Notes: a model not told the origin generated them from the sequence alone. Shown: positions 16,002-33,050, numbered from the stretch's first letter. The stretch is 34,431 nucleotides of DNA from Ferroacidibacillus organovorans (GCF_001642725.1 NZ_LSUQ01000028.1:1-34431), one strand, 5' to 3'. A program made the numbers and translations.

Positions 16002-16047
16002 GATTTTACCTCCTGAAATGATTCGAAAACAGAATTGTTGTGGGGCA

Positions 16048-16098
16048 ACCTTAGCACAATTTTTCGCATTTGACAAATAGGGTGCGGGGGTATACTAT
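16048..16098. promoter_or_regulatory. Back-to-back promoters (csoR-copA-copZ on +, ccdA-sco on -) with a CsoR-type operator
   Basis: + strand TTGACA (16070), 17 bp, TACTAT (16093), with the G-tract ATAGGGTGCGGGGGTAT in the spacer; - strand TTGTCA-17-TAAGGT overlapping the same -35. Confidence 0.7.
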
Positions 16099-16118
16099 CT
16101 GTGTCGGGTGGTGATGAA

Positions 16119-16394: not shown

Positions 16395-16406
16395 AGGTGA
16401 TCGCAG

Positions 16407-18623: not shown

Positions 18624-18724
18624 GTTATGGCAGCGCGTTCGTAATGCGAATTCGGCGGCCAGCGTATTCTCGTGATGCCATCGGGTGTGCGCACAGGAAA
18701 GCCATTTGAAGGGAGGTGAGGGAG

Positions 18725-18931
18725 ATGGCGGTGGCAACGATTGAGGTGCAGGGGATGACCTGTCAGGGGTGTGTCAAATCGGTCACGAAGGCGCTGCAGG
18801 CGGTTGACGGGGTGACGTCGACGGACGTGAGTCTTGAGAAAAACCAGGCGACGGTGACCTATGAAGAAGGTAAAACAACGGTTTCGGATTTGAAGTTGGC
18901 GATTGAAGATGCCGGATATGATGTGGCGTAA
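18725..18931 (+). CDS. copZ: Copper chaperone CopZ
   Basis: 'GMTCQGCV' HMA motif, 'IEDAGY'; strong RBS GGGAGGTGAGGGAG. Confidence 0.92.
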   Translation: MAVATIEVQGMTCQGCVKSVTKALQAVDGVTSTDVSLEKNQATVTYEEGKTTVSDLKLAIEDAGYDVA

Positions 18932-18949
18932 GTGCAGTTTAAAACCGGA

Positions 18950-18992
18950 GTGGGCGTGCAGGTTCTCACGAATCTGTGCGCTCACGTTTTTT
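18950..18992 (+). terminator. Rho-independent terminator after copZ
   Basis: GTGGGCGTGCAGGTT / AATCTGTGCGCTCAC stem (with G-U pairs) followed by a T-run. Confidence 0.6.
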
Positions 18993-19078
18993 ATGTCTGC
19001 CGATCCTGATTGTCTGATAAACTAGACGTAGTTTTACGATTGCGATGTGTGGCACGAAAAAGGGGCGGAGGAAAACCT

Positions 19079-20167
19079 ATGAGCATTTTGAACCGGATTC
19101 GCACCATTTTGGCGGGCGAACGATATTGCTCTGATGAGCACTTGGAAGGTTATCACAGGATCGGGCAAGATGTGTACGTTCTTGAGATGGAGCTTTTGGA
19201 CGCGACAGAGCCGCATGCAAAAGCCATTGCGCGCGCCGCGCGCTGTTTTCAAGTGATTGGGGATGCGCTTTTGCAGGATGCGCGGGAGGATGATCAGAAG
19301 CGCTCGGTGGCGAGCATCACGCATGAGCAGGCGGAGGTATTGTACGGAAGGATTCCTGATCTCATGGTTGCCGCCAGACAGGAGGCTGCGTTTGCGGGGA
19401 GTGCCCGCGTGAGTTTGCCGATTCGACTTGGGAAACGGGTAGAATCTGGCCATACTGGTCCGTTGGAGCATTTAATTGGGTTGCAGCGCGCGGCGGATGA
19501 TCTGGAATCTCTACTGTCGTCGAAGATCCAGTTGGCGAGGTTGGAGGGTGACAAATTTAAAGAATCCATTCTTTTAGCAGAAGAGGCGCGAACGCGAAGA
19601 CGGACAGGGGATTCGACGGTAGGGAGACTGACGGAGGGGAAAAAGGTTCCGGCTGATCTGCACGAAGAGGCAGAAGAATCCTACTGGACGGCACTGTCTT
19701 CCTATTTGCTGGTTGCGCAAGGGCTCGAAGATCCGAGCGTTTTGTCGCATCCGGCGCGCGTGAGCAGCGTCAAAAGCAAATTAGACTCGGAGGATCGCTG
19801 GCGCATAACGTCTGAGTCGGCGAAACGAGAGATTCGCAGAAGTGGAGAATGGCAGATTGCAGAGCGGGATCTTGACGAATTTTGGGAGTCTCACCGCCTC
19901 ACGCAAGAAGAGCGCGAGTATGAAGCGACCGTAGAAAATCTGCTGCGCTCAGGCGATATCGTGGAAAATGGATACTGGTACTGTTGCCCATTCCAGTCTT
20001 GTTATCGTGTGGTGCAAGGTCCTGTGCATGTCGTGGGACATACCGTCAAGCAGCATCACGCATTTGTGTGGGAATACGGTGAAGATGGAGCGCGGGGCCA
20101 TTTTATTCAGGTGGAATCCTTCAATCGCGCAGACTCCCGGCAGTACTGTGGCGATGAGGATGAGTAA
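19079..20167 (+). CDS. Hypothetical cytoplasmic protein
   Basis: Long ORF with RBS GGAGG before ATG 19079; charged helical N-terminus, Cys/His/aromatic C-terminus (WYCCPFQSCY); no family recognised. Confidence 0.7.
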   Translation: MSILNRIRTILAGERYCSDEHLEGYHRIGQDVYVLEMELLDATEPHAKAIARAARCFQVIGDALLQDAREDDQKRSVASITHEQAEVLYGRIPDLMVAARQEAAFAGSARVSLPIRLGKRVESGHTGPLEHLIGLQRAADDLESLLSSKIQLARLEGDKFKESILLAEEARTRRRTGDSTVGRLTEGKKVPADLHEEAEESYWTALSSYLLVAQGLEDPSVLSHPARVSSVKSKLDSEDRWRITSESAKREIRRSGEWQIAERDLDEFWESHRLTQEEREYEATVENLLRSGDIVENGYWYCCPFQSCYRVVQGPVHVVGHTVKQHHAFVWEYGEDGARGHFIQVESFNRADSRQYCGDEDE

Positions 20168-20214
20168 ACCGTCAATCCTTGCAATTTCTCTCTCGTGATA
20201 AACGAACAATCCCG

Positions 20215-20265
20215 TCGCGATCCAGAGCGAGTGATCTAGCGCTCTCAGGATCGCGAACCATTTTT
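20215..20265 (+). terminator. Probable terminator hairpin
   Basis: TCGCGATCC-AGAGCG ... CGCTCT-CA-GGATCGCGA followed by ACCATTTTT. Confidence 0.5.
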
Positions 20266-20276
20266 AGCATGACGTG

Positions 20277-20308
20277 CACACACTTTCTTCACACTTGCGC
20301 GCTAGGAT
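20277..20308 (+). promoter_or_regulatory. Regulon motif copy 1 (SHOCT peptide-rusticyanin-like operon)
   Basis: CACACA-CTTTC-TTCACA-N9-TAGGAT. Confidence 0.8.
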
Positions 20309-20338
20309 GAAGCCAACAATTGAAAGGTGGGCTCTGAA

Positions 20339-20536
20339 ATGGGATGTTGTGGTGGAGGGATTTTCTCGCGTGGGTATCGTCAATCCTCTCAAAGGGCATC
20401 TGCGCCGATCAAGCAACAGGCGGATTCTCCGGTCGATACGTTAAAGAAACGTTTAGCGAATGGTGAAATCAGTGTCGAAGAGTATCAGAAACTTTTAGTC
20501 ATTCTTCAGCAAGAAGATGTACCCATGCGTCTGTAA
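20339..20536 (+). CDS. Small SHOCT-domain protein with N-terminal MGCCGG
   Basis: 'DTLKKRLANGEISVEEY' SHOCT motif; ATG 20339 after AAAGGTGG. Confidence 0.7.
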   Translation: MGCCGGGIFSRGYRQSSQRASAPIKQQADSPVDTLKKRLANGEISVEEYQKLLVILQQEDVPMRL

Positions 20537-20556
20537 TTGAAACGGGGTGTCACGCA

Positions 20557-21219
20557 GTGAAAATGGGACGATCCATTTGGCTGTGGGGGTTGATAGCCCT
20601 CGCAGGGTTTATCGTGTTGGCGGGCGTTTTCATGGTTGCCTTCAGAATGTACAGTGGGCAAGGCTATGGAGGCATGATGGGAGGCGGTTATGCAGCAACG
20701 GGGCCGATAGGATCATCCGTGGGAGGCGTGACCCGCCGAACGTCCTGGCTATCGAGTGCAGAACTCGCTACAACGATTCGCGTGGGGGAGCAGGCTGCAA
20801 GGATCGACAAAAAGACAAATCGCATCGTTTATCGCGGAAAAAACGTGAATCTTGTTGCGCTTGCCTCTCCGCACGGTGTGCCGAATATGACGTTTGAAGT
20901 CGATGGGTTGGTGAATCCAACTCTTGTCGTGCCTGCCCATGCGCGCATCACCATTGAACTTGTCAATACGGACTGGGGATACATGCACGGCTTTGAAGTG
21001 ACGGAGACGCCGCCGCCATACTCATCCATGGTGATGATGGGGATTCAAAATGACTTTATTTTGATGCCATTGCCGCCGCGCACGACGCAAAATCTCCAAA
21101 CCGCACAGTATGCAACCCGCACGGAGACGTTGACGCTGCCCGCAGGGACGTATCACTATTTATGCCCGGTTCCAGGACATGCGGCGACAGGGATGTACGG
21201 TCGTCTGATCGTAACCTAA
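20557..21219 (+). CDS. Membrane-anchored rusticyanin/sulfocyanin-like blue copper protein (copy A)
   Basis: 'FEVDGLVNPTLVVP', 'NTDWGYMHGF', 'GTYHYLCPVPGHAATGMYG' type-1 Cu ligands (His, Cys, His, Met) closely resembling the rusticyanin C-terminus. Confidence 0.85.
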   Translation: MKMGRSIWLWGLIALAGFIVLAGVFMVAFRMYSGQGYGGMMGGGYAATGPIGSSVGGVTRRTSWLSSAELATTIRVGEQAARIDKKTNRIVYRGKNVNLVALASPHGVPNMTFEVDGLVNPTLVVPAHARITIELVNTDWGYMHGFEVTETPPPYSSMVMMGIQNDFILMPLPPRTTQNLQTAQYATRTETLTLPAGTYHYLCPVPGHAATGMYGRLIVT

Positions 21220-21277
21220 CGTCAACTACCCACCACGGTAAATTCGTTGAATGTTTTTCTGAAGGGGGGTCTCTTCC

Positions 21278-21874
21278 GTGTGTGTCAATCACCCGCGCTT
21301 TACACGTTTTTATGTTTGGGGGCAGCGGTACGTAGAACAGGCTGTTGGGGAAATCAGGGAAAAGCAGAACAGCAAAGCCTACGGGAGAACGCTCATTGTA
21401 GGTGCGGGTACGGGTTTAGACATTTCCACACTCGGTTCAAAGGTGAGCGAAATTACGTTGCTTGAGCCAGATGCACACATGCGCACCTACTTAAAACAAA
21501 CCTATGATTCTCTCCCTTTGATTCCATCGACGGCCGAAAACATGGATGTGGGGGACGGGCAGTTCGATACAGTGATAACCAGTCTCGTACTGTGTTCTGT
21601 GACAAATGTGCGGCAAGTCTTATCTGAAATTTACCGCGTGCTAAAGCCCGGTGGACAGTATCTTTTCATGGAACACGTGCAGCACAATGAGGCTGTTTCC
21701 CGCATGGTACAAAATTCATTGAACCCCGTTTGGCAACACATTGCAGGCGGCTGTCAGCTAAATCGGAAGATTGCTGATGACATAAACGCCTCTGCCTTCA
21801 CCACCATCGAATGCAGTCTTGTAAAACCCCATTTCCTCATTCCGATCATCGCGGGACAGGCTATACGCATTTGA
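21278..21874 (+). CDS. Class I SAM-dependent methyltransferase
   Basis: 'IVGAGTG', 'FDTVITSLVLCSV', 'RVLKPGGQYLFMEH'. Confidence 0.88.
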   Translation: MCVNHPRFTRFYVWGQRYVEQAVGEIREKQNSKAYGRTLIVGAGTGLDISTLGSKVSEITLLEPDAHMRTYLKQTYDSLPLIPSTAENMDVGDGQFDTVITSLVLCSVTNVRQVLSEIYRVLKPGGQYLFMEHVQHNEAVSRMVQNSLNPVWQHIAGGCQLNRKIADDINASAFTTIECSLVKPHFLIPIIAGQAIRI

Positions 21875-22136
21875 TCGCGCCGAGCAAACCCTCCTCATGA
21901 CCACTGACCCAGCATCGAACCTGGGCGATCTGTTTGATTTGTCTTTGTCAGGATGTACTGGATTTTCAAGGGGGTTGAATATGCCGCACGCTATGGAGAA
22001 CTAGGCCAAGATTTATAAGGCGAAGCTAAATCGCAAGCGGTCCATGTTGTCTTTTGAGTACATTGGGTACCTTGAATTTGCTACCTAACCTCAATGTAAA
22101 TCGCTTTAGAGAGGCATCTTACATCGGGGATAACAG

Positions 22137-22820
22137 CTATAGCGTACGTTGCAAATGAACCCACAGAAGATGGATCTGTAGTTCTGCGATGGATAGCCAT
22201 TGCTGACCGTAATCGACAATGGCTAAACGGAGCTGCACAGGGATTCGCTTTCCGTTAGGTTCTGTGATACTCGTGACTGCCAGCGGAGGAGTTTGAGGAA
22301 ACGCACCTGTTCGTGGAATCGCGTGGGCATTCATGGCAACGTAGCACAGTTGGGGAAAGATTACACACCACCAATTATGTCCTTGCCCTTTTCCTAGAAC
22401 AATGCGCAATGCCTCATAATTACCAGCTGGGAAGACGTGATTGCCATAGAATTTTCTTGGAAACCATGTCATTCCAAAGGTCGTTGTGCTGTTGTAAGTG
22501 ATCCCCATATGATTTAGATCGTCATGAATCAACGGATTGATCTTTGATATGTCGCGCTGAATTTCTAGTGCGGTTTGACTGTATGTGAGATGTTTCGGAA
22601 GATGTTGAGACAGAAAGGTTAATACGTGATCGCGTATCGCCAGTTTAACACGTTGATCGTGTGGGGTATTGCTATTTGCGATGATGCGAATCCGAATGGC
22701 ATTCGCAGGCAGAGGGGATGACGGGAGAGAAGCAAGGGCAAAGAGTGGACGAAACGAAAATTGATGGAGCAGCCCGAACAGACATACGCCAACAAATGTG
22801 AAAATCACCCCCCGCCTCAT
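22137..22820 (-). CDS. spoIIR: Stage II sporulation protein R
   Basis: 'AIRIRIIANSN..DQRVKLAIRD', 'FPRKFYGNHVFPAGNYEALRIVLGKGQGHNWWCVIFPQLC'; signal peptide; RBS AAGGGGGGTGA. Confidence 0.92.
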   Translation of the reverse strand: MRRGVIFTFVGVCLFGLLHQFSFRPLFALASLPSSPLPANAIRIRIIANSNTPHDQRVKLAIRDHVLTFLSQHLPKHLTYSQTALEIQRDISKINPLIHDDLNHMGITYNSTTTFGMTWFPRKFYGNHVFPAGNYEALRIVLGKGQGHNWWCVIFPQLCYVAMNAHAIPRTGAFPQTPPLAVTSITEPNGKRIPVQLRLAIVDYGQQWLSIAELQIHLLWVHLQRTL

Positions 22821-22861
22821 GTTCTCACCCCCCTTTTCATTCAAAAAAACCTGGTAGGTGG

Positions 22862-22891
22862 AAGTGTGGCCAGTTCAGGAGCTAGATATAC
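22862..22891 (-). promoter_or_regulatory. SigmaF-type (forespore) promoter of spoIIR
   Basis: Minus strand GTATA-15 bp-GGCCACACT fits the sigmaF consensus GYATA-15-GGnnAnAHT. Confidence 0.7.
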
Positions 22892-22920
22892 GTGAGAGTC
22901 ATAGGAAACTCAATTGGATC

Positions 22921-22952
22921 TGCATACTTTCTTCACAGTTGGTCTCTATGAT
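22921..22952 (+). promoter_or_regulatory. Regulon motif copy 2 (rusticyanin-like copy B)
   Basis: TGCATA-CTTTC-TTCACA-N9-TATGAT. Confidence 0.8.
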
Positions 22953-22977
22953 GACTGTGAAAGGGAGGAATGCAGTG

Positions 22978-23775
22978 ATGAAAAGAAAAGGTTGGATCAT
23001 TCCTGTGATCGCTGGTTTGTCTGTGTTGATGATTGGCAGTGGGGCGTTTGCGGCGACGGTTTCGCAAACAAACCGCATGACTTTTCAGGGAACACATACG
23101 AGCCATGGATTAACGGGTACTGTGGGTGTGATGGGTGACAGAAGCAGCGGAAGTGGCGCCGCGAGCGCGCTGGGCGGCGGATACGGCATGATGGGCGGCG
23201 GAAGTGGCGCCGCGGGCAGGATGGGCGGTGGATACGGTAGGATGGGTGGCGGAAGTGGAACTGCGAGTCGGATGGGCGGTAGGATGAACGCTTATTCTTC
23301 ACTTGACAGTAGTGCCTCGCTGAATCAACAGATTGCGCTGGGAAAGCAGGGAGCCGTGATCGATCAAAAGACCAATACGATCACGTACAGCGGTGGGTCG
23401 ATTAACCTGGTTGCGCTCGCATCGCCGCACGGGGAACCGAATATGACGTGGGAGATCGATGGATTGGTGAATCCCACAATCATCGTGCCTTCCAGTGCAA
23501 ATGTTCAAGTTACCTTGGTGAATACGGACTGGGGATATATGCACGGATTTGAGGTGACGTCAACCGCACCACCGTATGGCATTATGGCGATGATGAGTGT
23601 GAATAGCGATTTTCTATTGATGCCGCTGCCTGAACGAACAACCAAGGCGCTTGCCACAGCGCGTTATGATACGCGATCTGGGCAGTTGCATTTGAGTAAA
23701 GGGACGTATCACTATCTATGTCCGATGCCCGGTCACGCCAATCAGGGTATGTACGGAACACTAAAAGTCGTTTAA
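22978..23775 (+). CDS. Secreted rusticyanin/sulfocyanin-like blue copper protein (copy B) with Gly/Met-rich repeat linker
   Basis: Signal peptide (...GAFA), 'NTDWGYMHGF', 'GTYHYLCPMPGHANQGMYG'; clear paralog of 20557-21219; RBS AAGGGAGG. Confidence 0.85.
   Translation: MKRKGWIIPVIAGLSVLMIGSGAFAATVSQTNRMTFQGTHTSHGLTGTVGVMGDRSSGSGAASALGGGYGMMGGGSGAAGRMGGGYGRMGGGSGTASRMGGRMNAYSSLDSSASLNQQIALGKQGAVIDQKTNTITYSGGSINLVALASPHGEPNMTWEIDGLVNPTIIVPSSANVQVTLVNTDWGYMHGFEVTSTAPPYGIMAMMSVNSDFLLMPLPERTTKALATARYDTRSGQLHLSKGTYHYLCPMPGHANQGMYGTLKVV
23147..23287 (+). repeat. 51-bp coding tandem repeat (~2.7 copies) encoding GSGAAxxMGGGYGxMGG
   Basis: GCGGAAGTGG recurs at 23147, 23198 and 23249. Confidence 0.85.
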
Positions 23776-23881
23776 TTTTTGCTCCATCGCATAGAGAACC
23801 GCGCAGGGACGGCAAAGGCACATTCGTGTCCAGTCCGCTTGCGCGGTTCGAATTTTAAAAATGCATCTTTCTTAGGGGGGA

Positions 23882-24199
23882 GTGAACGTGAGACGTTTGG
23901 ATTGGATGATTGCCAGTGGATTTGTTCTGTTGGGTCTTTTGTGTTTGATGATCGCCGGTGAAATCTTTGTAAGCGATCCAATGATGGCTGGAATGATGGG
24001 AGCGAATCCTAAGAGCAGCGCGCTATTTATCGTTATTCTCATACTATTTGTCATGATGGTTATGGTCTTGTTGGTGCGAATGAATCTTGATAAAAAGAAC
24101 GCTCCATCGGTGCGCTGTCTACATTGCAGTCAACGCTTAAAGTCGGAATGGCGTGTGTGTCCTTATTGCGGTCAGCATCGATCGCAGATTTGGGAATAG
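23882..24199 (+). CDS. Two-TM Met-rich membrane protein with C-terminal zinc ribbon
   Basis: Loop 'PMMAGMMG' between TMs; 'CLHC...WRVCPYCG'. Confidence 0.75.
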   Translation: MNVRRLDWMIASGFVLLGLLCLMIAGEIFVSDPMMAGMMGANPKSSALFIVILILFVMMVMVLLVRMNLDKKNAPSVRCLHCSQRLKSEWRVCPYCGQHRSQIWE

Positions 24200-24209
24200 A
24201 TCAGGCTTC

Positions 24210-24241
24210 TCCATACATTCTTCACAGGTAGGCGATAAAGT
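24210..24241 (+). promoter_or_regulatory. Regulon motif copy 3 (peroxiredoxin)
   Basis: TCCATA-CATTC-TTCACA-N9-TAAAGT. Confidence 0.8.
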
Positions 24242-24264
24242 ATGTACAAACGAAGACAGGAGAG

Positions 24265-24921
24265 ATGTTGTTTATGTCAGAAGTGCAGCAATTGCCGAGA
24301 TTGAATGAATTAGCACCAGATTTTGAAGCGAACACGACGCAAGGAAAACTAAAATTGAGTGATTTTCACGGGAAGTGGGTGGTTCTTTTTTCCCATCCAG
24401 CTGATTTTACGCCTGTGTGTTCGACGGAGTTCGGATCATTCGCTTCGAAAACGGAAGAGTTTGCAAAGCGCAATGTCCAATTAATCGGGCTGTCTGTAGA
24501 CGGTGTGCAGGCGCATTTGGCATGGATTCGCGACATTGAAGAGATTTTTTTACACAAGGTTACGTTTCCGGTGATTGCTGATTTGGATATGAAGGTATCA
24601 AGCTTATACGGAATGATTCATCCTGGTGCAAGCAGTACGGCGGCGGTTCGCTCGGTGTTCATCATGGATGACAAAGGGATCATGCGAGCGATGATTTACT
24701 ACCCGATGAATGCGGGACGCAATATATCAGAGATCATCCGTGTCATTGATGCGCTGCAAACGGCGGATCAATACGGCGTCTCGACACCTGCGGATTGGAC
24801 GCCTGGGGGAGAGGTCGTCGTGGCTCCCCCTGCGCAACAAGGCGCGATCAAGACACAGGAGGAAGAAGAAGCTCAAGGCTACGATTATAAACGTTGGTAC
24901 CTGCGCTTTAAAAATCTTTGA
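24265..24921 (+). CDS. Peroxiredoxin (Prx6/1-Cys type)
   Basis: 'FSHPADFTPVCSTE', 'YYPMNAGRN', 'TPADW'. Confidence 0.92.
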   Translation: MLFMSEVQQLPRLNELAPDFEANTTQGKLKLSDFHGKWVVLFSHPADFTPVCSTEFGSFASKTEEFAKRNVQLIGLSVDGVQAHLAWIRDIEEIFLHKVTFPVIADLDMKVSSLYGMIHPGASSTAAVRSVFIMDDKGIMRAMIYYPMNAGRNISEIIRVIDALQTADQYGVSTPADWTPGGEVVVAPPAQQGAIKTQEEEEAQGYDYKRWYLRFKNL

Positions 24922-24941
24922 TTTAAGAGGGGACATCGATC

Positions 24942-24975
24942 GCCCACCTGTCGCTTTGGAGACGGGTGGGCTTTT
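24942..24975 (+). terminator. Rho-independent terminator
   Basis: GCCCACCTGTC ... GACGGGTGGGC stem followed by TTTT. Confidence 0.7.
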
Positions 24976-25023
24976 GTATGTTCTAAAACGTATGCCCATT
25001 GTGGATGTGGCACATTCGTGATA

Positions 25024-25055
25024 CCCTTCATTCAAACCGATGTTTGAATGAAGGG
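25024..25055. promoter_or_regulatory. CadC-type operator
   Basis: Perfect 14-bp inverted repeat CCCTTCATTCAAAC-cgat-GTTTGAATGAAGGG with a TCAAA-N6-TTTGA core, directly before the ArsR gene. Confidence 0.8.
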
Positions 25056-25057
25056 GA

Positions 25058-25435
25058 ATGATGATGAATAAGCGGGACATGTGTCAAGTCGAATGTGTGG
25101 ATATGTCAAAGGTGGAGAGGCTTCGCTCTGTCATTCCGGAGACCGCTTCACCGTCTATGGTTTTCAAAGCCCTTGCAGATGGCACACGTCTCAAAGTGGC
25201 CTATGCTCTGGCAGAGGATGAACTGTGTGTCTGTGAGGTTGCAGCATTACTCGATACGACAGTTCAAAACGCGTCGCATCACCTCCGGCGGCTTAAAAGC
25301 GCAGGGCTCGCATCCTATCGGAAAGAGGGGAAACTCGTCTACTACAGACTGTCACCAGCGGCGTCTCTCGTTTTGAATTCAGTAAAGCAAGGTCAAGGGG
25401 GCGAAAAGGTTGTCAGTGAAAGCGTTGCAGGTTAA
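25058..25435 (+). CDS. ArsR/SmtB-family metalloregulator, CadC-like
   Basis: N-terminal 'CQVEC' plus 'ELCVCE' (alpha3N site); 'ASHHLRRLK', 'GKLVYY'. Confidence 0.85.
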   Translation: MMMNKRDMCQVECVDMSKVERLRSVIPETASPSMVFKALADGTRLKVAYALAEDELCVCEVAALLDTTVQNASHHLRRLKSAGLASYRKEGKLVYYRLSPAASLVLNSVKQGQGGEKVVSESVAG

Positions 25436-26048
25436 AAAAGGAATCAACATTGAGATTGTCAGCATTCTTTGGATGCTGGTTGAAGCGGCGGTGGCCATCC
25501 GCGCTGGAATCATTGCTCATTCATTGGCACTTAAGGCGTTTGGGGCAGATAGTATCATTGAATTGGTGGCAAGTGCGATCCTTCTCTGGCGGCTCTATGT
25601 TGAGTCAAGTGGTGCAAGCCTTGCACGGGTAAAGCAGGCCGAGAAGAGGGCTTCATGGGTTGTCGGAGTCGCTTTGCTTGCACTGGCTGGTTACATCGTT
25701 GTCTCAGCCGCATTCGACCTGTGGACACGTTCCGGCTCGGAAAAAAGCATGCTAGGTCTCGCACTTGCCATCGCTTCGGGGATGATTATGCCGTACTTGT
25801 CACGTGAGAAAAAAAGAATTGGTACGGAAATCGGCAGCAAAGCCCTTCGCGCCGACGGCTCATGTAGCATCGTATGTGCGTACATGGCGTGGACATTGAT
25901 CGTAGGACTCGTTTTGACCGCTCTGGTCGGCTGGTGGTGGCTGAATGCCCTGGCTGGCTTGGCATTGGTTTATTTTGTGGTCAAAGAGGGGATTGAAGCC
26001 ATTCAAGAGGCGCGCGGCGTCGAGGATGCCTGTGGGTGTGGTCATTGA
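25410..26048 (+). CDS. Short cation-efflux (CDF-like) transporter lacking the cytoplasmic C-terminal domain
   Basis: 'SLALKAFGADSIIE', 'GSKALRADG', about 6 TM, C-terminal 'CGCGH'. Confidence 0.75.
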   Translation: MSVKALQVKKGINIEIVSILWMLVEAAVAIRAGIIAHSLALKAFGADSIIELVASAILLWRLYVESSGASLARVKQAEKRASWVVGVALLALAGYIVVSAAFDLWTRSGSEKSMLGLALAIASGMIMPYLSREKKRIGTEIGSKALRADGSCSIVCAYMAWTLIVGLVLTALVGWWWLNALAGLALVYFVVKEGIEAIQEARGVEDACGCGH

Positions 26049-26060
26049 TCGAGAAGTTCC

Positions 26061-26092
26061 TCCATACTTTCTTCACAAATTCCGGATATGCT
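26061..26092 (+). promoter_or_regulatory. Regulon motif copy 4 (multi-pass membrane protein)
   Basis: TCCATA-CTTTC-TTCACA-N9-TATGCT. Confidence 0.8.
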
Positions 26093-26116
26093 CCTGCTAT
26101 TGTCTAAAAGAGGTGT

Positions 26117-27271
26117 ATGCATATGAACATGACTCCCTATATTGATCCCGCGGTTGTTCACTCCTTTCACGTGATGCTCTTTCAGTGGAGCCTCATGACG
26201 CTCGCGTCTGTTCTGTTGATGTCTGCGGCGTGGTGGCTTTTAGGCTATTTCAATGAGGATACGGATGCCCCTCGGCGCATCACGTTTGACACACATCATC
26301 CTTTTCGACAAATCTGGATGCTGATCCGCCACCGCGTCGGGCATACTCCAAAGGCGCGTGTCGTACTAGGGTGGGGTTTGGGAACATTCTGGCTCATCGA
26401 TGGAATTCTTCAAGCGCAGCCCGCCATGCCCAATAATGGATTTGTCCAGGACGTGCTTGCCCCCTCAGTGATAGGGCAGCCGCCGTGGTATCTTCGCATT
26501 CTCGGATGGAACATCCAGTTTTGGTCAGACTATCCTGTTGGCGCAGACGTGTTTTCCGTGATTTTACAGGTGGGCATCGGGCTGTGCCTTTTGCTCGCGA
26601 TGGATCGGGTCTGGGGACGGATTGGGTTGTGGGTATCCATCGTATGGGGTCTTGGCATTTGGTTTTTGGGAGAAGGGATGGGCGGCATCTTGACGGGCAG
26701 CGCGACATGGCTGTCAGGATCGCCTGGCTCCGTCCTGTTCTATGTGTGTGGCGCGATCTTTTTACTGCTTCCAGAAAGCGTGTGGAGAGATGGACGGGTC
26801 ATTCGACTCGGAAATCGCGTGATCGGAGGGATCTGGATCTTGGCCACGTTCGCCCAAGCGTTACCTACGGCAGGGTACTGGACAGGGCAAGGTCTCAGCG
26901 GGCCATTTATAACCGCAGCCAGTATGCCGCAACCAAGCTTTTTTTCAGATCCGATCCATGCGATGGCGGTGAGTACGCTTCGTCATCCGTGGCTTTGGAA
27001 TGCCGTTTTTGTTGCCTTTATGTTTACCTTGGGTGTCTTCTTCTGGTTTCAAAGGGTACACTCATGGGTGTTGGTCTCGGCATTTGTATGGCTCTTTTTC
27101 AGTTGGTGGATGGGGCAAGATTTTGGGGTCATGGGTGGGATTGGAACCGATCCAAATTCAGCGCCCGTGTTCGCTTTGTTCATTGTGACGATCCATCTCG
27201 ATCGGTTCGCGCGTCGCAAGCATGCACCTATAGAACGACATACACAAACTTTCTTCACACTTGAGCGGTAA
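26117..27271 (+). CDS. Uncharacterised Trp/Gly-rich multi-pass membrane protein with internal duplication
   Basis: About 9 TM segments; two similar halves ('IWFLGEGMGG...GSPGS' and 'WWMGQDFG...GTDPNS'); RBS AGAGGTG. Confidence 0.75.
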   Translation: MHMNMTPYIDPAVVHSFHVMLFQWSLMTLASVLLMSAAWWLLGYFNEDTDAPRRITFDTHHPFRQIWMLIRHRVGHTPKARVVLGWGLGTFWLIDGILQAQPAMPNNGFVQDVLAPSVIGQPPWYLRILGWNIQFWSDYPVGADVFSVILQVGIGLCLLLAMDRVWGRIGLWVSIVWGLGIWFLGEGMGGILTGSATWLSGSPGSVLFYVCGAIFLLLPESVWRDGRVIRLGNRVIGGIWILATFAQALPTAGYWTGQGLSGPFITAASMPQPSFFSDPIHAMAVSTLRHPWLWNAVFVAFMFTLGVFFWFQRVHSWVLVSAFVWLFFSWWMGQDFGVMGGIGTDPNSAPVFALFIVTIHLDRFARRKHAPIERHTQTFFTLER

Positions 27272-27274
27272 GGT
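27243..27274 (+). promoter_or_regulatory. Regulon motif copy 5 (SHOCT-RR-HK-zinc ribbon operon; autoregulatory position)
   Basis: CACAAA-CTTTC-TTCACA-N9-TAAGGT, embedded in the 3' end of the upstream CDS. Confidence 0.8.
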
Positions 27275-27331
27275 CTAAGCAGTAAGAAGAAGTGCTGATA
27301 CGTGCCTGTCATTGAAAAGGGGTGTTATACC

Positions 27332-27598
27332 ATGTGGTATGGAAATGGTGGAATTGGGTTTGGGTCGATGATGGGAGCGATGGGGATCATGGGATTTGTC
27401 ATGATTCTGTTTTTCGGGATCTTGATCTTTGCCGTCGTTTTTGGGGTGAGAATGTTCACGCGAACGGAGCGCGGTTATTCAGGCGGAAATTCGTCTCATG
27501 ATTCGGGCAGGGCGCTTCACATCGTTAAAGAACGCTATGCCAAAGGGGAAATCAGCCGCGATGAGTACGATCGGCTGCGCGATGAGTTGAAAGACTGA
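27332..27598 (+). CDS. Met/Gly-rich single-TM SHOCT-domain protein
   Basis: 'GSMMGAMGIMG' then a TM; 'ALHIVKERYAKGEISRDEY'; ATG 27332 after AAGGGGTG. Confidence 0.85.
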   Translation: MWYGNGGIGFGSMMGAMGIMGFVMILFFGILIFAVVFGVRMFTRTERGYSGGNSSHDSGRALHIVKERYAKGEISRDEYDRLRDELKD

Positions 27599-27631
27599 TC
27601 GGTTACGTTTGCATCGAAAGAAGGGGAGAGG

Positions 27632-28321
27632 ATGCAGCGCCATATCCTGATCGTGGACGATGAGGCGGCAATGCGGCAATTGGTGCGCATCTATCTGGCG
27701 CACGCGGGGTTCTCCGTCTCTGAAGCAAAGGACGGTGTTTCGTGTATGGAGGAACTGTCTGCGGGCGTCTATGACATGGTGATCCTCGACATGATGATGC
27801 CAGGCATGGACGGTGTGGAAGTGTGTCGGAGGATTCGCGAGCGTCTTCCTGAGATGCCAGTGCTTATGTTGACCGCGCGCGACGAGGTGGAGTCGCGCGT
27901 AAAGGGGCTCACGGCTGGTGCGGATGACTACCTGACGAAACCGTTTGACTCGCGGGAACTGGTCGCGCGTGTCAAAAGTTTACTGCGAAGAACGCAACCT
28001 CGCGATGAGGTGGAGTACGCGATTCCGGAATATCATTTGCGCATGGATGTCGAGACGCGAAATGCGACGGTGCGCGAGGAACGGCTCGCGCTTACTCCCA
28101 AGGAGTTTGATTTGCTCGCATTGTTCGTCAAGTGGCCCGGCCGCACGTACACGCGTGATGAACTGCTGGATCGGGTCTGGGGACCAGAGTATGAGGGAGA
28201 CACGCGCACGGTGGATAGCCACATCAAAAACATCAGAGAAAAGCTGCGGGACGCGGGCCTTTCGGCGAGCATCCTCGCCACCGTCTGGGGCATCGGCTAT
28301 CGGTTTGAGGTTCCCAAATGA
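27632..28321 (+). CDS. OmpR-family response regulator
   Basis: 'ILIVDDE', 'LDMMMPGMDG', 'GADDYLTKPF', 'TRTVDSHIKNIREKL', 'TVWGIGYRF'. Confidence 0.95.
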   Translation: MQRHILIVDDEAAMRQLVRIYLAHAGFSVSEAKDGVSCMEELSAGVYDMVILDMMMPGMDGVEVCRRIRERLPEMPVLMLTARDEVESRVKGLTAGADDYLTKPFDSRELVARVKSLLRRTQPRDEVEYAIPEYHLRMDVETRNATVREERLALTPKEFDLLALFVKWPGRTYTRDELLDRVWGPEYEGDTRTVDSHIKNIREKLRDAGLSASILATVWGIGYRFEVPK

Positions 28322-29403
28322 TTCGCTCACGCATCGCCGTCAAACTCGGGGCATCCATCCTTGGGCTTATGCTCGTGGTGCTTTCAGCGCTCTATCTCTC
28401 GCTTGAACAGTTGATGGTTCATGTGGCGCAATTTCGTGACATCAGCCACGCCGCCTCGAGTCGTGTAGAACAGATGCTCGTGCTGGCCGCAGTCGGGGCG
28501 ATCCTGTTGACGGCAGGTCTGGCGATCGTTCTCTCACATCGCCTCGCGCAGCCCCTGCTCGCGATGAGAAGGGCCACGCGCGAGATTAGTCGCGGGCAGT
28601 ACCACATTCGCGTGCCTGCGTCAGGTCGCGATGAGGTCTCCCAACTCGGTCAGGCCATCAATGATCTCGCGAAACATCTGGATTATCTGGATAAAACGCG
28701 CAAGCAATTTCTCGCCGATGTCGCGCATGAATTGCGTACACCGCTCACGTACATTAAAGGCTATAGTGAAGTGGTGTACAAGGGAATGGCGGAGTCACCG
28801 GACGCGGTCAATCGCTATTTGGCGCTGATCTATGAAGAAACGCAACGCGTCGAACGCTTGATTCAGGATTTGTTTACCCTCGCGCAAGCGGATGAAGGGG
28901 TGCTCTTGCCCATACACCGGGAGAAAATTCAGGTCAATGAGTGGATTTGCAACCTGGTTGATCGGGTGAGCGCGCGGGCAGCCACCAAGGATGTTACGGT
29001 GGATGTGCACATCGCGCAAACGTTCTGCGTTGAAGGCGATCCTGTGCGACTTGAACAGGCATTGATCAATGTGCTTGACAATGCGGTGCGCTACACGTTG
29101 TCCGGTGGGATGGTATCGGTCGCGGTCGCGCAAGAGGGAGACTTCCTCCTGCTCCAGGTGAGCGATACGGGCATCGGCATTCCGCGTGAGGAACTCCCCT
29201 ATATCTGGGAACGCCTCTATCGCGTCGAGAAGTCGAGGTCGCGCGGGGGCGGCGGAAGTGGGCTTGGTTTGGCGATTGTCAAACAGATTGTCGAGTCGCA
29301 CGGGGGATACGTTTCCGCGAAGAGTGAAGAAGGAAAAGGGACGGTCATTACGCTCGGCGTGCCGCTTCATGCAGGCGTCGACACGGGAGGGGATCGGGCG
29401 TGA
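28318..29403 (+). CDS. Sensor histidine kinase with very short extracytoplasmic loop
   Basis: Two TMs, HAMP, 'DVAHELRTPL', 'NVLDNAVRY', 'DTGIGI', 'GSGLGLAI'. Confidence 0.95.
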   Translation: MIRSRIAVKLGASILGLMLVVLSALYLSLEQLMVHVAQFRDISHAASSRVEQMLVLAAVGAILLTAGLAIVLSHRLAQPLLAMRRATREISRGQYHIRVPASGRDEVSQLGQAINDLAKHLDYLDKTRKQFLADVAHELRTPLTYIKGYSEVVYKGMAESPDAVNRYLALIYEETQRVERLIQDLFTLAQADEGVLLPIHREKIQVNEWICNLVDRVSARAATKDVTVDVHIAQTFCVEGDPVRLEQALINVLDNAVRYTLSGGMVSVAVAQEGDFLLLQVSDTGIGIPREELPYIWERLYRVEKSRSRGGGGSGLGLAIVKQIVESHGGYVSAKSEEGKGTVITLGVPLHAGVDTGGDRA

Positions 29404-29708
29404 ATAAAACGCCGTGGATCATCGCCTCCATTTTGATTTTTTTAGGGATACTCTGCCTCTTCATGGTGGGGAGTGGCGCGACCGTTAGGCCGATGGGTTC
29501 AATGATGGGGCCCATGATGATGTTTGGGATGCTCTGGATGATCGCATTTCTTTTTTTAGCGGTTCTTCTCTTGGTATTCCTCTATTTACAGATGAAAAAA
29601 TGGAGAGAGCGGGAAAATTCCTGCCGATCGTGTGGACAGCGTCTCCACCGTGAATGGAAGGTCTGTCCGTACTGTGGTGAGAGGATCGAGAAATTTCCAG
29701 ATCGGTAA
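29400..29708 (+). CDS. Two-TM Met-rich membrane protein with C-terminal zinc ribbon (paralog of 23882-24199)
   Basis: 'PMGSMMGPMMM'; 'CRSC...WKVCPYCG'; GTGA overlap with the kinase stop. Confidence 0.8.
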   Translation: MNKTPWIIASILIFLGILCLFMVGSGATVRPMGSMMGPMMMFGMLWMIAFLFLAVLLLVFLYLQMKKWRERENSCRSCGQRLHREWKVCPYCGERIEKFPDR

Positions 29709-29726
29709 GGCGTGTCAGGCGGCTCT

Positions 29727-30692
29727 TCAGTGACTGTGAGGTTGACTGTCGTCATCTCTACACAGCACAGAGTCATCGTGCGGGTGATCGCCGTCCTCAA
29801 TTTGTACGGTGACGTGGCCAATGTTTTTATGCGCCAGCGCCTGCTCTACGTCGCGCAGGATGTGCTGGCTCTCGCGGATCGTTAGGCCGCCGTCGAGCAC
29901 AGCGTGACAAGACAGCGCATTTTTTCCGCTGGTGATACTCCAGATGTGGACGTCGTGGACGTCGTGGACGCCGCCTACTGCGCGAATCGTCTCTACGATG
30001 TCACCTACTTCGATGCCAGTTGGCGTGCCTTCCATCAGAATGCTGACCGTTTGCTTTACGATGCGCCACGCGCCGAATGCGATGAGCAGCGCGATGAGAA
30101 CGCTCAGGATGGGGTCGATCAGATTCCAGTGCGTGAATGCGATGATCAGACCACCGAGAATGACAGCGGCCGAAGCGGCAGCGTCTCCCAGCATGTGCAG
30201 CACCGCGCTGCGCACGTTGATGTTCTCATCGTGGCGCATGCCGAGTCCGAGATAAAGGTTCATGAGCAACCCAACGCCGGCGCTGATGAACATCCATGTG
30301 GGGGTCACGTTTACCGGATGATGAAAGCGACTGTACGCTTCCCACAGGATGACGAGTGTGATGAGGATCAATGTGATGCCATTGATGAGGGCGGCGAGAA
30401 TGCCCGATCGATGGTACCCAAACGTCATTGAACCGCTCGGTGGCTTTTCTGACTGCTTTAGGGCGAACCATGACAGGCCGATCGCCGCGATGTCGGTCAG
30501 AACATGGCCGGCGTCTGACAGCAGAGCGAGACTGTGGGAAAGCATGCCGCCGATCAGTTCTACAACGAGGATCAAAAAGGTGAGAAAGAATGCCTTTTTC
30601 ATCTGGCCTGTCGGCGCGTGCGAGTGGAACACGCCGCTGTGATCGTGATCGTGCGTTTTTGCGTGGCCATGATGATGCGCGTGTTCAGCCAT
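29727..30692 (-). CDS. czcD: Cation diffusion facilitator (Zn/Co/Cd efflux, CzcD-like)
   Basis: His-rich N-terminus, 'SLALLSDAGHVLTD', 'LHMLGD', 'HDVHIW'; ATG 30692 after AAGGAG. Confidence 0.88.
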   Translation of the reverse strand: MAEHAHHHGHAKTHDHDHSGVFHSHAPTGQMKKAFFLTFLILVVELIGGMLSHSLALLSDAGHVLTDIAAIGLSWFALKQSEKPPSGSMTFGYHRSGILAALINGITLILITLVILWEAYSRFHHPVNVTPTWMFISAGVGLLMNLYLGLGMRHDENINVRSAVLHMLGDAAASAAVILGGLIIAFTHWNLIDPILSVLIALLIAFGAWRIVKQTVSILMEGTPTGIEVGDIVETIRAVGGVHDVHDVHIWSITSGKNALSCHAVLDGGLTIRESQHILRDVEQALAHKNIGHVTVQIEDGDHPHDDSVLCRDDDSQPHSH

Positions 30693-31086
30693 GAGAATTC
30701 TCCTTTTGTAGATGATCGATGTGATCGATCGCCATTTGTAGCAGCCCCAACGTGTGCGCATCGTCGTGCGTATAATAGATGGTGTTTCCGTCGCGGCGAT
30801 TCTTCACGAGTCGCAAGGTGCGCGAGTAGCGCAACTGGTGGCTGATCGCGGATTGCGTCATTCCGAGCGCTTCTGCCAAGTCACAGACACACAACTCACG
30901 CTGCGCTAAGATGGAGAGAATGCGAATTCGGGTAGGGTCGGAAAGCGCCTTGAACCACTCGGATAACTGTTTTACGGTGTCGTCTGCCAAAGCGCTTGAC
31001 GCGCAAGGTTCTACAGCGTTCAGGTGTGCGCCTGATCCGCCACAACATGATTCGGCGTTCAAGTTTATAAGTTTTGACACTTGCAC
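30685..31086 (-). CDS. ArsR/SmtB-family metalloregulator (CzrA/SmtB-like)
   Basis: 'FKALSDPTRIRIL', 'ELCVCDL', 'SAISHQLR', alpha5-type 'DDAH...DHIDH'; N-terminal CC. Confidence 0.88.
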   Translation of the reverse strand: MQVSKLINLNAESCCGGSGAHLNAVEPCASSALADDTVKQLSEWFKALSDPTRIRILSILAQRELCVCDLAEALGMTQSAISHQLRYSRTLRLVKNRRDGNTIYYTHDDAHTLGLLQMAIDHIDHLQKENSHG

Positions 31087-31092
31087 ACCACC

Positions 31093-31142
31093 TATATGCG
31101 TTGTTGTTCATATATTGTATTCTAGTGTCACATCTTTTGCAA
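31093..31142 (-). promoter_or_regulatory. Promoter and SmtB/CzrA-type operator
   Basis: Minus strand TTGCAA-17-TACAAT followed by TATATG-AACAACAACG-CATATA. Confidence 0.7.
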
Positions 31143-31168
31143 CTGGGATCACTTGAAGAAGCTTAACG

Positions 31169-31203
31169 TTGACGAATCATATATTTAGATATATAAATAT
31201 ATG
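31169..31203 (+). promoter_or_regulatory. mer operon promoter with ArsR-type palindromic operator
   Basis: TTGACG-17-TATAAA overlapped by CATATATTTA-gatata-TAAATATATG (10-bp perfect IR); normal 17-bp spacer rather than the long MerR-type spacer. Confidence 0.7.
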
Positions 31204-31235
31204 TAATTGGTTTGCGATGAGATGGAGATGATTTT

Positions 31236-31532
31236 TTGGTTGAACGACCTTATTTTTTAAAGGTAACTAATCTCGCTTTGGCTGGCATACCTGTTGTGTT
31301 TTTTCTTTGCTGTGGGTTACCTCTGATCTTAGGTGCGATTGGTCTGACTGCAGCTGGCGCATTCATGGTTGGTATGAAAAATTGGATCGTTGGAGGATTT
31401 GTCGTGATGATAGGCATCGTCGCGTTGATCGCTGCCATTCGTCGGCGTGGTTCGATCAAACAGGCTTGCCGCGTTACGAAAATGGGTCAGGAGGTGCCGG
31501 ATTGTGAATCCAATCCAGAAACAAGACACTGA
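31236..31532 (+). CDS. Small mercury transport membrane protein (MerE/MerF/MerT-like)
   Basis: Vicinal Cys pair in TM1 ('FLCCGLPLILG'); 2-3 TM; first gene of the merA operon. Confidence 0.65.
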   Translation: MVERPYFLKVTNLALAGIPVVFFLCCGLPLILGAIGLTAAGAFMVGMKNWIVGGFVVMIGIVALIAAIRRRGSIKQACRVTKMGQEVPDCESNPETRH

Positions 31533-31839
31533 AATTCAGAATGAATTATACGCGAAATTTTTTCACGGTTTGTCTAATCCGACACGTTTTCGCATCGTGG
31601 AGATTCTGTTAGATGGCGAAAAAACAGTAAGTGAATTGGTAGATATGCTTTCTGTGACTCAGGGGCAAGTATCCAACCATTTGGCGTGCCTGAAATGGTG
31701 CGGATATGTTTCATCAAAGCAAGACGGAAAATATGTGATCTATCGAATGACGGATGAACGTGTACGAACAATTGTGCAACTTGCCAAGGAAATGGTGTCA
31801 GACAATGCAGCGCATATCAGTCAATGCACAAGAATGTGA
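31504..31839 (+). CDS. ArsR/SmtB-family regulator, CmtR-like (alpha4C Cys site)
   Basis: 'VSNHLACLKWCGYV' CxxxC in alpha4 plus a C-terminal Cys; GTG 31504 after CAGGAGGTG. Confidence 0.85.
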   Translation: MNPIQKQDTEIQNELYAKFFHGLSNPTRFRIVEILLDGEKTVSELVDMLSVTQGQVSNHLACLKWCGYVSSKQDGKYVIYRMTDERVRTIVQLAKEMVSDNAAHISQCTRM

Positions 31840-31842
31840 GGG

Positions 31843-32379
31843 TTGACCGTGAATAAATGGGTTTTGTCGCTGGGATTGGTCGTCATTGTCGGGATTGGTA
31901 TTTCTGCGGTGAATGCAGTTGGGAGACAGGCTCAAGTCTCCAATGTGAATGCCCCGCCAACGACGAGTCAGACTCATTCAACAGCTACCGGAAATGTGGG
32001 GTACCAGTCCCTCTCGTTCCATACAGTTTCAGGACAAGTACTTCACGTGAACCCAAACAAGAAAACCGTGTTACACTTTATGACATCGACGTGTGCTTCC
32101 TGCGTGCCGACAGAACGGATGCTTACGAAATTTTCAAGTATGCCCGGGGTTCAGATCATCTCCGTCGACATCAATCCGCAAAACGACAATTTACGCACGA
32201 TTCAACAATTTGAACGCACGGCGCATTCAAATTGGCCGTATGTCATGGAGACGACGCCATACTTTATTGATACGTTTCATGTCACTGAACTTGATACGGT
32301 GGTTGTTCTCGAACACGGCCATGTGATCTTTAATAAGGTTCTCCCATCTTTCGCTCAGTTAAAGAAGGTATTAGCCTAA
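31843..32379 (+). CDS. Membrane-anchored thioredoxin-like protein
   Basis: N-terminal TM; 'LHFMTSTCASCVP' CxxC motif. Confidence 0.75.
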   Translation: MTVNKWVLSLGLVVIVGIGISAVNAVGRQAQVSNVNAPPTTSQTHSTATGNVGYQSLSFHTVSGQVLHVNPNKKTVLHFMTSTCASCVPTERMLTKFSSMPGVQIISVDINPQNDNLRTIQQFERTAHSNWPYVMETTPYFIDTFHVTELDTVVVLEHGHVIFNKVLPSFAQLKKVLA

Positions 32380-33038: not shown

Positions 33039-33050
33039 GGGATTGAAATC

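Follow-up and report, generated by a model that had tools for sequence, protein, structure and literature searches.

A putative PhoB-like activator box and the unnamed, probably copper-responsive two-component clade linked to it in Ferroacidibacillus organovorans and other Bacilli

Introduction

PhoB of Escherichia coli, acting at the pho box, exemplifies class II activation, in which the activator site replaces the -35 element of the promoter. BceS–BceAB and LiaS–LiaF are intramembrane-sensing kinases that work with accessory proteins, and the box of the copper regulator CusR is a palindrome. For Bacilli, copper sensing is generally presented as a purely intracellular matter, handled by CsoR or CopY. 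Here we describe a promoter box that occurs five times in a 34,431-nucleotide stretch of DNA from Ferroacidibacillus organovorans (GCF_001642725.1, NZ_LSUQ01000028.1, positions 1-34431; this whole stretch is called the window), together with the response regulator (27632-28321) and the histidine kinase (28318-29403) encoded behind its fifth copy. Sequence comparisons make it probable that the box is a PhoB-style, -35-replacing activator site and that it belongs to an unnamed, probably copper-responsive two-component clade.

In Gram-negative bacteria, the CusRS, PcoRS and CopRS systems sense extracytoplasmic copper through a kinase–regulator pair that activates copper-handling genes, and the available part of the review names two-component copper sensing only for the Gram-negative periplasm (PMC7558416). 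According to the accessible text on Corynebacterium glutamicum, the CopRS pair, which has a short-loop kinase, activates a copper island (multicopper oxidase, P-type ATPase) as well as its own operon, and the CopR box is an 11-bp-period direct repeat, TGAAGATTTnnTGAAGATTT, with a single site in the genome (PMC3140484). The mobile copper island tcrYAZB-cueO of Enterococcus faecalis carries a multicopper oxidase, an lgt paralog and a cusRS-like pair which, in the excerpts at hand, 'probably' regulates cueO (PMC4511184). The original prediction, a note drawn up from the sequence of the window, had suggested that the present system may be undescribed. For the box and the regulon this stands: our literature search, which did not cover subscription journals, returned no paper that defines the box or names the clade. 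The bare idea is not new, a pair regulating cueO being already suggested in the accessible part of the E. faecalis report.

Five promoter boxes in the window

Exact copies of the 17-bp box YVCAHACWTTCTTCACA stand at five places in the window (20277, 22921, 24210, 26061 and 27243), all on the + strand; none of 100 dinucleotide-preserving shuffles of the window contains one. These are the positions and the orientation that the original prediction had given; its statement that each copy stands exactly 9 bp before a TAnnnT hexamer is likewise correct for all five named hexamers:

20277..20308, + strand: box 1 (20277-20293) and -10-like TAGGAT (20303-20308)
22921..22952, + strand: box 2 (22921-22937) and -10-like TATGAT (22947-22952)
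24210..24241, + strand: box 3 (24210-24226) and -10-like TAAAGT (24236-24241)
26061..26092, + strand: box 4 (26061-26077) and -10-like TATGCT (26087-26092)
27243..27274, + strand: box 5 (27243-27259) and -10-like TAAGGT (27269-27274)

The box can be divided into two successive 11-bp units, TnCAnAnnTnn and TTCACAnnTnn, because a T recurs at position 9 of each unit. All five sites contain TnCAnA-N5-TTCACA, that is, direct repeats at an 11-bp period. Relative to the predicted transcript start the box extends from about -38 to -17, over the usual -35 position and the spacer. No -35-like hexamer is present at any of the five box promoters, and a sigma-70 consensus scan of 18500-31500 predicted a promoter at none of the boxes. 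The earlier description of an 11-bp-period repeat over the -35 position, in the style of OmpR/PhoB-family sites, is borne out by these features.

Behind every box, 17-51 nt past the predicted transcript start, a Shine-Dalgarno-like purine-rich stretch is followed by a start codon. Three gene starts are reassigned from ortholog N-termini and ribosome-binding sites (ATG 20339, ATG 22978 and ATG 27332). The open reading frame list starts the first of these genes at GTG 20327; ATG 20339 agrees with the orthologs. Box 5 falls within the final codons of the gene for a 384-aa membrane protein, and its -10 overlaps the stop codon of that gene. The interleaved genes, spoIIR and the ArsR/CDF genes (CadC-like/CDF in the earlier wording), had been said to lack the motif, and a position weight matrix (PWM) scan found no box at them. 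Three metatranscriptome runs of one study contained next to none of the words from window positions 20000-29800.

Distribution of the box

Seven exact boxes are present in the whole 3.03-Mb assembly: the five in the window, one at position 46266 of contig C8 and one at 13867 of contig C54 (C, G and L numbers are our labels for contigs, genomes and loci). The C8 copy (46266-46297; 5267-5298 in locus L001) has TATGAT at +9, and was rejected as a live regulon promoter: no convincing gene lies behind it, it is placed between fragments of IS1595-type and Tn3 transposases, and it looks like a stranded promoter. The C54 copy, inside a 625-aa open reading frame and with no TAnnnT, was set aside as chance. 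In a PWM scan of the same genome six sites reached at least 31.5 bits (the training sites of the matrix included these six), the next site had 26.0 bits and the maximum in the reversed-genome control was 20.3 bits. The 26.0-bit site adjoins a paralogous regulator gene on C8, directly upstream of it, and the scan found no box before respiratory or Pho genes. Scanning this and related genomes had been suggested along with the original prediction, which a motif spread genome-wide before respiratory genes and bound by a core regulator would have contradicted; the box proved instead to be confined to the island and C8, and clustered in the relatives.

Among 41 related genomes, the 15-mer CANACWTTCTTCACA has 28 matches in nine genomes, and the reversed pattern has 5. 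The matches are clustered: five syntenic ones lie in G001 of the same genus, G032 (which belongs to a different family) and G011 have five each, and G002 has two, both divergent. When the -10 element is also required, 24 sites are found in 11 of 401 genomes of the class, and none with the reversed pattern. A match in G034, at a contig edge and with no TAnnnT, was treated as chance. Searches with two mismatches in G006, G009, G033, G011 and G017 gave only the level of the reversed control apart from exact sites, and degenerate boxes are not findable in this manner.

From our own and the other genomes, 32 distinct sites were selected by the 15-mer alone. TAnnnT stands at +9 in 28 of them, against a chance of about 1-2% at a fixed place (our own estimate from base composition), although many of the sites are orthologs or paralogs and not independent, so that the counts overstate the independent support. 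Since the sites were picked by the 15-mer alone and still show this hexamer, the 9-bp spacing is no selection artefact. In 28 of the 32 sites, again, a T stands three bases past the box and is the counterpart of the position-9 T in the first 11-bp unit.

A regulator clade linked to the box

Full-length orthologs of the kinase, with 39-76% identity, are encoded in G001 (76%), G032, G007, G014, G009, G006, G033 and G002 (39%), while G011 has a regulator ortholog and a kinase truncated by the contig end. Seven of the 41 relatives have both a box and a kinase or regulator ortholog, three an ortholog only (G006, G009, G033), two a box only (G017, G034) and 29 neither (Fisher p = 1.6e-4 for this table, in genomes that are related and not independent). 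The box stands directly upstream of the operon holding the regulator in G000, G001, G002, G007, G014, G032 and G073; a DUF1541 gene lies between box and regulator in G410 and its near-identical copies G101 and G129, and variant boxes precede the regulator operon in G033, G067 and the A. pseudofirmus OF4 plasmid.

The genome of F. organovorans encodes 20 OmpR-type regulators. A phylogenetic tree unites the box-linked regulators with the C8 paralog in a single clade (support 96/99) that excludes the other 18 of these. The clade has the recognition helix RTVD[ST]H[IV]KN[ILM]REK, which is different in those 18. As a negative control, 80 loci of less related OmpR regulators (1.1 Mb) contained one site above 16 bits; these loci came from a related-locus search with the regulator and are generic members of the OmpR family (best, Paenibacillus alvei with 51% identity), close relatives not having been returned. 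The claim that regulator 27632 controls the five promoters, including its own, thus finds comparative backing in the co-occurrence table and in the shared clade and helix, and regulators of this clade very probably bind the box.

Several loci weigh against this association. G006, G009 and G033 have kinase orthologs but no exact box (completeness is 81% for G006 and 73% for G009, and G033 has only a 3-mismatch variant before its regulator); the regulator gene has no upstream box in G006, G009, G011 and G137; G017 has a box and no clade regulator in a 91%-complete assembly; and the boxes of G049 precede a multicopper oxidase gene and a DsbD-like gene in a genome where no clade-type regulator was found.

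The regulators of G032 (L031) and G007 (L037) are nearly identical though their hosts belong to different families, and G410, G101 and G129 (L046, L143, L145) carry copies that are 99-100% identical; transposase, resolvase and IS200 genes are found nearby. Because near-identical regulators and copies occur in different families, the regulator–box module is read from these comparisons as moving horizontally, on mobile metal islands.

On C8, a second module (56000-59700; L132 3215-6676) consists of a degenerate box, CACACTTTCTACAAA-N9-TACGAT, an orphan regulator with 55% identity and no adjoining kinase, a paralog of a 385-aa protein and PspA, in this order; a divergent 1-Cys peroxiredoxin gene has an upstream region resembling a decayed box, CCATGGTTTCTCCATA-N9-CACGAT. 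The C8 regulator, having the same recognition helix, may bind the same box and may cross-regulate.

The 385-aa protein (19010-20167, + strand) probably has 362 aa, with a likely start at 19079. It is cytoplasmic, has no family and has a Cys/His-rich C-terminus. Its gene adjoins the regulon in G001, G032 and G011, is duplicated after the C8 regulator, and in the window follows a 16-pair terminator-like hairpin at 18950-18985. The sporulation signalling gene spoIIR (22137-22844, - strand) is conserved in an unexpected place: the island surrounds it here and in G001 and adjoins it in G032 (L031 15466-16158).

Genes of the proposed regulon

The genes behind the boxes are as follows.

20339..20536, + strand: small protein with N-terminal MGCCGGG and SHOCT (Pfam SHOCT E 2.3e-5, below cut-off; ortholog N-termini)
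20557..21219, + strand: cupredoxin A, membrane-anchored and rusticyanin-like, with a Gly/Met-rich linker and C-X4-H-X4-M (Pfam SoxE/Copper-bind)
21278..21874, + strand: class I S-adenosylmethionine (SAM) methyltransferase (Pfam Methyltransf_11; syntenic in G001)
22978..23775, + strand: cupredoxin B, rusticyanin-like, with a long Gly/Met-rich linker; likely start ATG 22978
23882..24199, + strand: membrane protein of two helices, outer loop rich in Met, zinc ribbon at the C-terminus (Pfam zinc-ribbon matches below cut-off)
24265..24921, + strand: 1-Cys peroxiredoxin (Pfam AhpC-TSA and 1-cysPrx_C; NF009668 266 bits, above the cut-off of 211)
26117..27271, + strand: 384-aa multipass membrane protein (no Pfam or NCBIfam match)
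27332..27598, + strand: membrane protein with a Met/Gly-rich N-terminus, one helix and SHOCT (Pfam SHOCT 30.4 bits, above the cut-off of 27)
27632..28321, + strand: OmpR/PhoB-family response regulator, proposed binder of the box (Pfam Response_reg and Trans_reg_C; clade; recognition helix)
28318..29403, + strand: histidine kinase with two helices, an outer loop of about 25 residues, HAMP, HisKA and HATPase_c (Pfam; N-terminal alignment)
29400..29708, + strand: two-helix, Met-rich-loop, zinc-ribbon protein directly after the kinase; candidate co-sensor

Both cupredoxins show the C-X4-H-X4-M spacing of copper ligands. They are called rusticyanin-like only, and are by sequence no rusticyanin equivalogs, because this spacing is present but the TIGR03095 rusticyanin cut-off of 146.7 bits is not reached (99.3 bits for A, 93.6 bits for B). 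The zinc-ribbon protein of 23882-24199 is, by alignment, a paralog of the one that follows the kinase. Downstream of the peroxiredoxin gene lies a strong terminator-like hairpin (24942-24971). For the 384-aa protein, the predicted fold resembles the membrane part of actinobacterial proteins fused to SCO1/SenC and AhpC-TSA domains (template modelling score 0.77-0.78 in the Atlas, a lead only), a modelled likeness and a hint that the protein might partner copper or thiol oxidoreductases in the membrane.

The regulator matches Pfam Response_reg (122.5 bits) and Trans_reg_C (92 bits), each above its cut-off. Judged by eye, it has DDE at residues 9-11, D53 in VILDMMMPGMDG and the K in LTKPF, which are candidates for the acidic pocket, the phospho-acceptor Asp and the conserved Lys. 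Its nearest solved relatives are RegX3, MtrA and BaeR, and it misses the PhoB equivalog TIGR02154 (220.6 vs 296.2 bits). Among 94 regulator homologs the source names are all generic or automatic 'ResD' labels, the closest named homolog, with 80% identity, being from F. organovorans. In the kinase, HAMP, HisKA and HATPase_c are all above the Pfam cut-offs.

Proposed mechanism

We propose that the box is the site of a tandem dimer of the phosphorylated regulator 27632-28321, and possibly also of its C8 paralog. The five promoters have a -10-like TAnnnT and should depend on the phosphorylated regulator because they have no usable -35; RNA polymerase would be recruited by the regulator in a PhoB-like manner. 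That regulators of the clade activate from the box is likely.

The units in the original prediction are retained, with one addition. Unit 1 would comprise the SHOCT protein, cupredoxin A and probably, as its last gene, the methyltransferase (21278-21874); unit 2 cupredoxin B and the zinc-ribbon membrane protein; unit 3 the 1-Cys peroxiredoxin; and unit 4 the 384-aa membrane protein. Unit 5, the regulator operon, has the SHOCT gene 27332-27598 as its first gene, followed by the regulator, the kinase and the second zinc-ribbon protein, and its box would give positive autoregulation. The signal would be excess copper outside the cytoplasmic membrane. Cupredoxins and Met-rich loops would bind or buffer copper, and the peroxiredoxin would repair oxidative or thiol damage.

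Copper or another signal

The case for copper, which we hold to be the probable signal, comes largely from what the box and its regulators accompany elsewhere. G410 has the box before two operons, multicopper oxidase-copA-csoR-copZ and DUF1541-regulator-kinase. Behind the box of G049 stands a multicopper oxidase gene, and a further copy there, with no TAnnnT, precedes the DsbD-like gene; two lgt paralogs stand behind boxes in G137, and in G006 the regulator gene immediately follows copA. The OF4 plasmid encodes a 53%-identical regulator in a regulator-kinase-small protein-CopC cluster, and variant boxes (CAwAnwTTCAwCACA-N9-TAnnnT) stand before four genes beside it. On a P. lautus plasmid a 56%-identical regulator is found beside YdhK, SHOCT and multicopper oxidase genes, the last of which has a variant box. 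Within the regulon itself, the SHOCT, zinc-ribbon and cupredoxin proteins have Met-rich outer stretches, a feature known to form Cu(I) sites in other proteins. Outside the regulon, the window makes up a copper and metal island with multicopper oxidase, SCO1/SenC, csoR-copA, further CDF/ArsR genes and MerA.

Other observations count against copper. The island also carries CDF/ArsR and MerA genes; neither an efflux pump nor an oxidase belongs to the regulon in the window; copper is already served there by csoR-copA and by a second two-component pair before a multicopper oxidase gene; and cupredoxins and a peroxiredoxin would also fit an iron or redox signal. The outer loop of the kinase (about 25 residues) has no conserved His/Met column apart from H35, which 5 of 9 short-loop orthologs share. 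Finally, the regulator misses the heavy-metal cut-off of TIGR01387 (cztR_silR_copR; 177.7 vs 279.2 bits) and the kinase that of TIGR01386 (199.7 vs 292.55 bits), and neither protein reaches any NCBIfam equivalog or heavy-metal subfamily cut-off.

The strongest competing explanation leaves box and regulator as proposed and changes the signal, either to Fe(II)/Fe(III) or redox state, with the rusticyanin-like proteins as carriers in iron oxidation, or to oxidative, thiol or envelope stress. Such cupredoxins occur in two of the five units, and the available text of one paper discusses those of acidophiles as iron-oxidation components (PMC6803676). The peroxiredoxin, the TlpA-like redoxins that are regulon members in G011, the PspA gene beside paralogous modules and a kinase loop that is free of conserved metal ligands would also suit a signal of this kind. 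Against it, the boxes or variants of distant clade members precede multicopper oxidase, copA-csoR-copZ, DUF1541 and CopC-linked genes, nothing known of those distant hosts suggests iron oxidation, and the Met-rich loops are invariant in the accessory proteins. Copper is therefore favoured over a general redox signal, and a non-copper signal is regarded as rather unlikely. The original prediction spoke of a copper/redox-stress system in an acidophile; the system is not confined to acidophiles, the clade and its box (or variants) being present next to copper genes in other Bacilli and on Bacillus and Paenibacillus plasmids.

Binding and activation weighed against other roles of the box

If the signal is set aside, the same regulator might bind the box and repress, blocking RNA polymerase until the signal releases it. 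Repressors too sit at about -38 to -17, which speaks against the activator reading; but there is no -35-like hexamer at any of the five promoters, an autoregulated operon with such a box is typical of positive feedback, and both the position and the 11-bp direct repeats match PhoB-type activation sites. We therefore regard repression as improbable.

It is slightly more improbable still that the neighbouring regulator is a bystander and that the box is bound by the C8 paralog alone, by a core regulator similar to PhoP, ResD or WalR, or by the second regulator of the window (7263-8033). The 20 OmpR-type regulators of the genome offer candidates, TTCACA fits the half-site TT(A/T/C)ACA of Bacillus subtilis PhoP, and the C8 paralog combines the same recognition helix with a degenerate upstream box. 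Yet in its own genome the box is restricted to the island and C8, from genome to genome it accompanies the clade regulator, in many cases on mobile islands, and not core regulons, and the recognition helices of the other 18 regulators differ.

That the box is no regulator site, being instead an alternative sigma promoter or the repeat of a mobile or cassette element, is very improbable: the copies do share one orientation and each heads a gene unit, the islands are mobile, with transposases nearby and near-identical copies in different families, and CATAC resembles part of sporulation-sigma -10 elements in an island with spoIIR, but no sigma-factor gene lies alongside the box in the annotated loci, the flanks are not conserved outside the box and the -10, CATAC is replaced in two window copies by CACAC and CAAAC, and the internal 11-bp period fits a tandem dimer.

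The kinase and its small partner

With a copper-responsive activator system as the preferred reading, the question arises how the kinase would perceive copper. A direct metal site in its outer loop, of the His/Met type found in the CusS domain, was rejected for lack of conservation. In the clade, the kinases of G410 and G073 have 472 aa and an outer domain of about 150 residues.

A gene for a two-helix protein follows the kinase gene in G000, G001, G002, G007, G014, G032 and G009 (in G009 with only a 28-residue C-terminal match). The six proteins that were aligned, all but that of G009, share an invariant PMG-MM-M motif in the outer loop (M32 G33 M35 M36 M39) and four invariant cysteines in the zinc ribbon at the cytoplasmic end. 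In the OF4 and P. lautus plasmid loci, too, the gene after that of the kinase encodes a small protein of two helices, whose N-terminal helix shows the W..(L/I)G(L/I)xCL pattern of the proteins above. From this shared helix motif after both plasmid kinases, regulator, kinase and small membrane protein might be an ancestral three-gene unit.

Structure prediction for a complex of kinase and zinc-ribbon protein gave a score of 0.43, the best of three controls reaching 0.00; agreement between the runs extends to at least 79% of contacts, and the partner has a predicted local distance difference test (pLDDT) value of at least 76. Of 157 solved complexes, 116 attained the mark for complexes, as did 2 of 215 mismatched pairs; at scores up to 0.60 only 18 of the 157 attained it, together with both passing mismatches. 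The model thus lends weak support to an interaction of the two proteins. A three-part extracytoplasmic sensor, in which a kinase that has lost its outer sensor domain reads copper via the small two-helix protein, is a tentative and rather doubtful idea. In such a sensor, additional copper baits or feedback might be provided by the Met-rich SHOCT membrane proteins.

Other genes of the window

A second two-component pair, regulator 7263-8033 and kinase 6166-7266 (- strand), lies directly upstream of a 391-aa multicopper oxidase gene (4943-6118, - strand). The recognition helix of this regulator is unlike that of the box-linked clade, and no box is present. Pair and oxidase may form a separate copper circuit.

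The region 8884-16076 encodes a BlaI/CopY-like repressor, a BlaR1-like M56 protein, a TlpA-like redoxin, Lgt-like and CcdA/DsbD-like proteins, DUF4396 and VanY, with a SCO1/SenC-redoxin fusion (14038-15348) on the opposite strand to this set; csoR-copA follows at 16101-18623. Lying next to csoR-copA, these genes resemble a set for the handling of thiols and copper. At the other side, 31447-34430 is a mercury module at the island edge, with an ArsR-type regulator, a thioredoxin-like protein, a 219-aa protein and a MerA-type mercuric reductase with HMA, cut by the window end.

Implications

The mechanism proposed here, a PhoB-style activator, is ordinary, and the value of the system lies in a new regulon and a question of sensing rather than in a new principle. 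A clade of regulator–kinase pairs would be tied to copper genes by a defined box in Alicyclobacillales from acid mines, in further Bacilli and on plasmids of Bacillus and Paenibacillus, and its regulon would be predictable from sequence. This would give a first functional handle on the Met-rich SHOCT, two-helix zinc-ribbon and 384-aa membrane proteins and on the rusticyanin-like cupredoxins of Gram-positive acidophiles, as well as a ready set of copper-inducible promoters for bioleaching organisms. If the sensor idea is true, Bacilli would sense copper outside the cell, apart from cytoplasmic CsoR and CopY. How a kinase without a sensor domain reads the signal is a testable question that follows.

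Comparison with known systems

In mechanism, the present system resembles PhoB and the pho box, with a regulator of the OmpR/PhoB family, two direct repeats at an 11-bp period, a regulator operon that carries a box, and a box that ends about 9-10 bp before the -10 and replaces the -35 hexamer. It differs in the half-sites, TnCAnA/TTCACA as against CTGTCAT in the pho box, in targets that are copper and redox rather than phosphate genes, and in a regulator that falls short of the PhoB cut-off (220.6 vs 296.2 bits).

In the proposed sensing of extracytoplasmic copper by a kinase–regulator pair, it is like the Gram-negative CusRS, PcoRS and CopRS systems as the accessible review text presents them. 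CusS, on the same source, has a large periplasmic Cu(I)-binding domain. The palindromic CusR box is another point of difference, and the NCBIfam heavy-metal cut-offs are not reached here. The E. faecalis island is likewise from Bacilli, and its multicopper oxidase and lgt have counterparts behind the present box in G410, G049 and G137. In the excerpts of that report, however, the role of the pair is an annotation-level suggestion and no box is defined; it is likened here by gene content only, and no Enterococcus record is among the 17 plasmid matches at E <= 1e-50.

The present kinase shares with BceS and LiaS its two helices, its very short outer loop and a conserved membrane protein nearby that might deliver the signal. 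Unlike them it has a HAMP domain, and its accessory protein is small, with two helices, a loop rich in Met and a zinc ribbon.

By biology, CopRS of C. glutamicum is the closest characterised analogue, as far as the available part of its description extends. TGAAGA, the CopR half-site, recurs when the present box is read as its reverse complement (TGTGAAGAAAG). His/Met candidates are present in the CopS loop, whereas the present loop is not conserved and a Met-rich zinc-ribbon protein follows the kinase. Five promoters here stand against one CopR site, and phylum and targets differ; the likeness is drawn as one of analogy.

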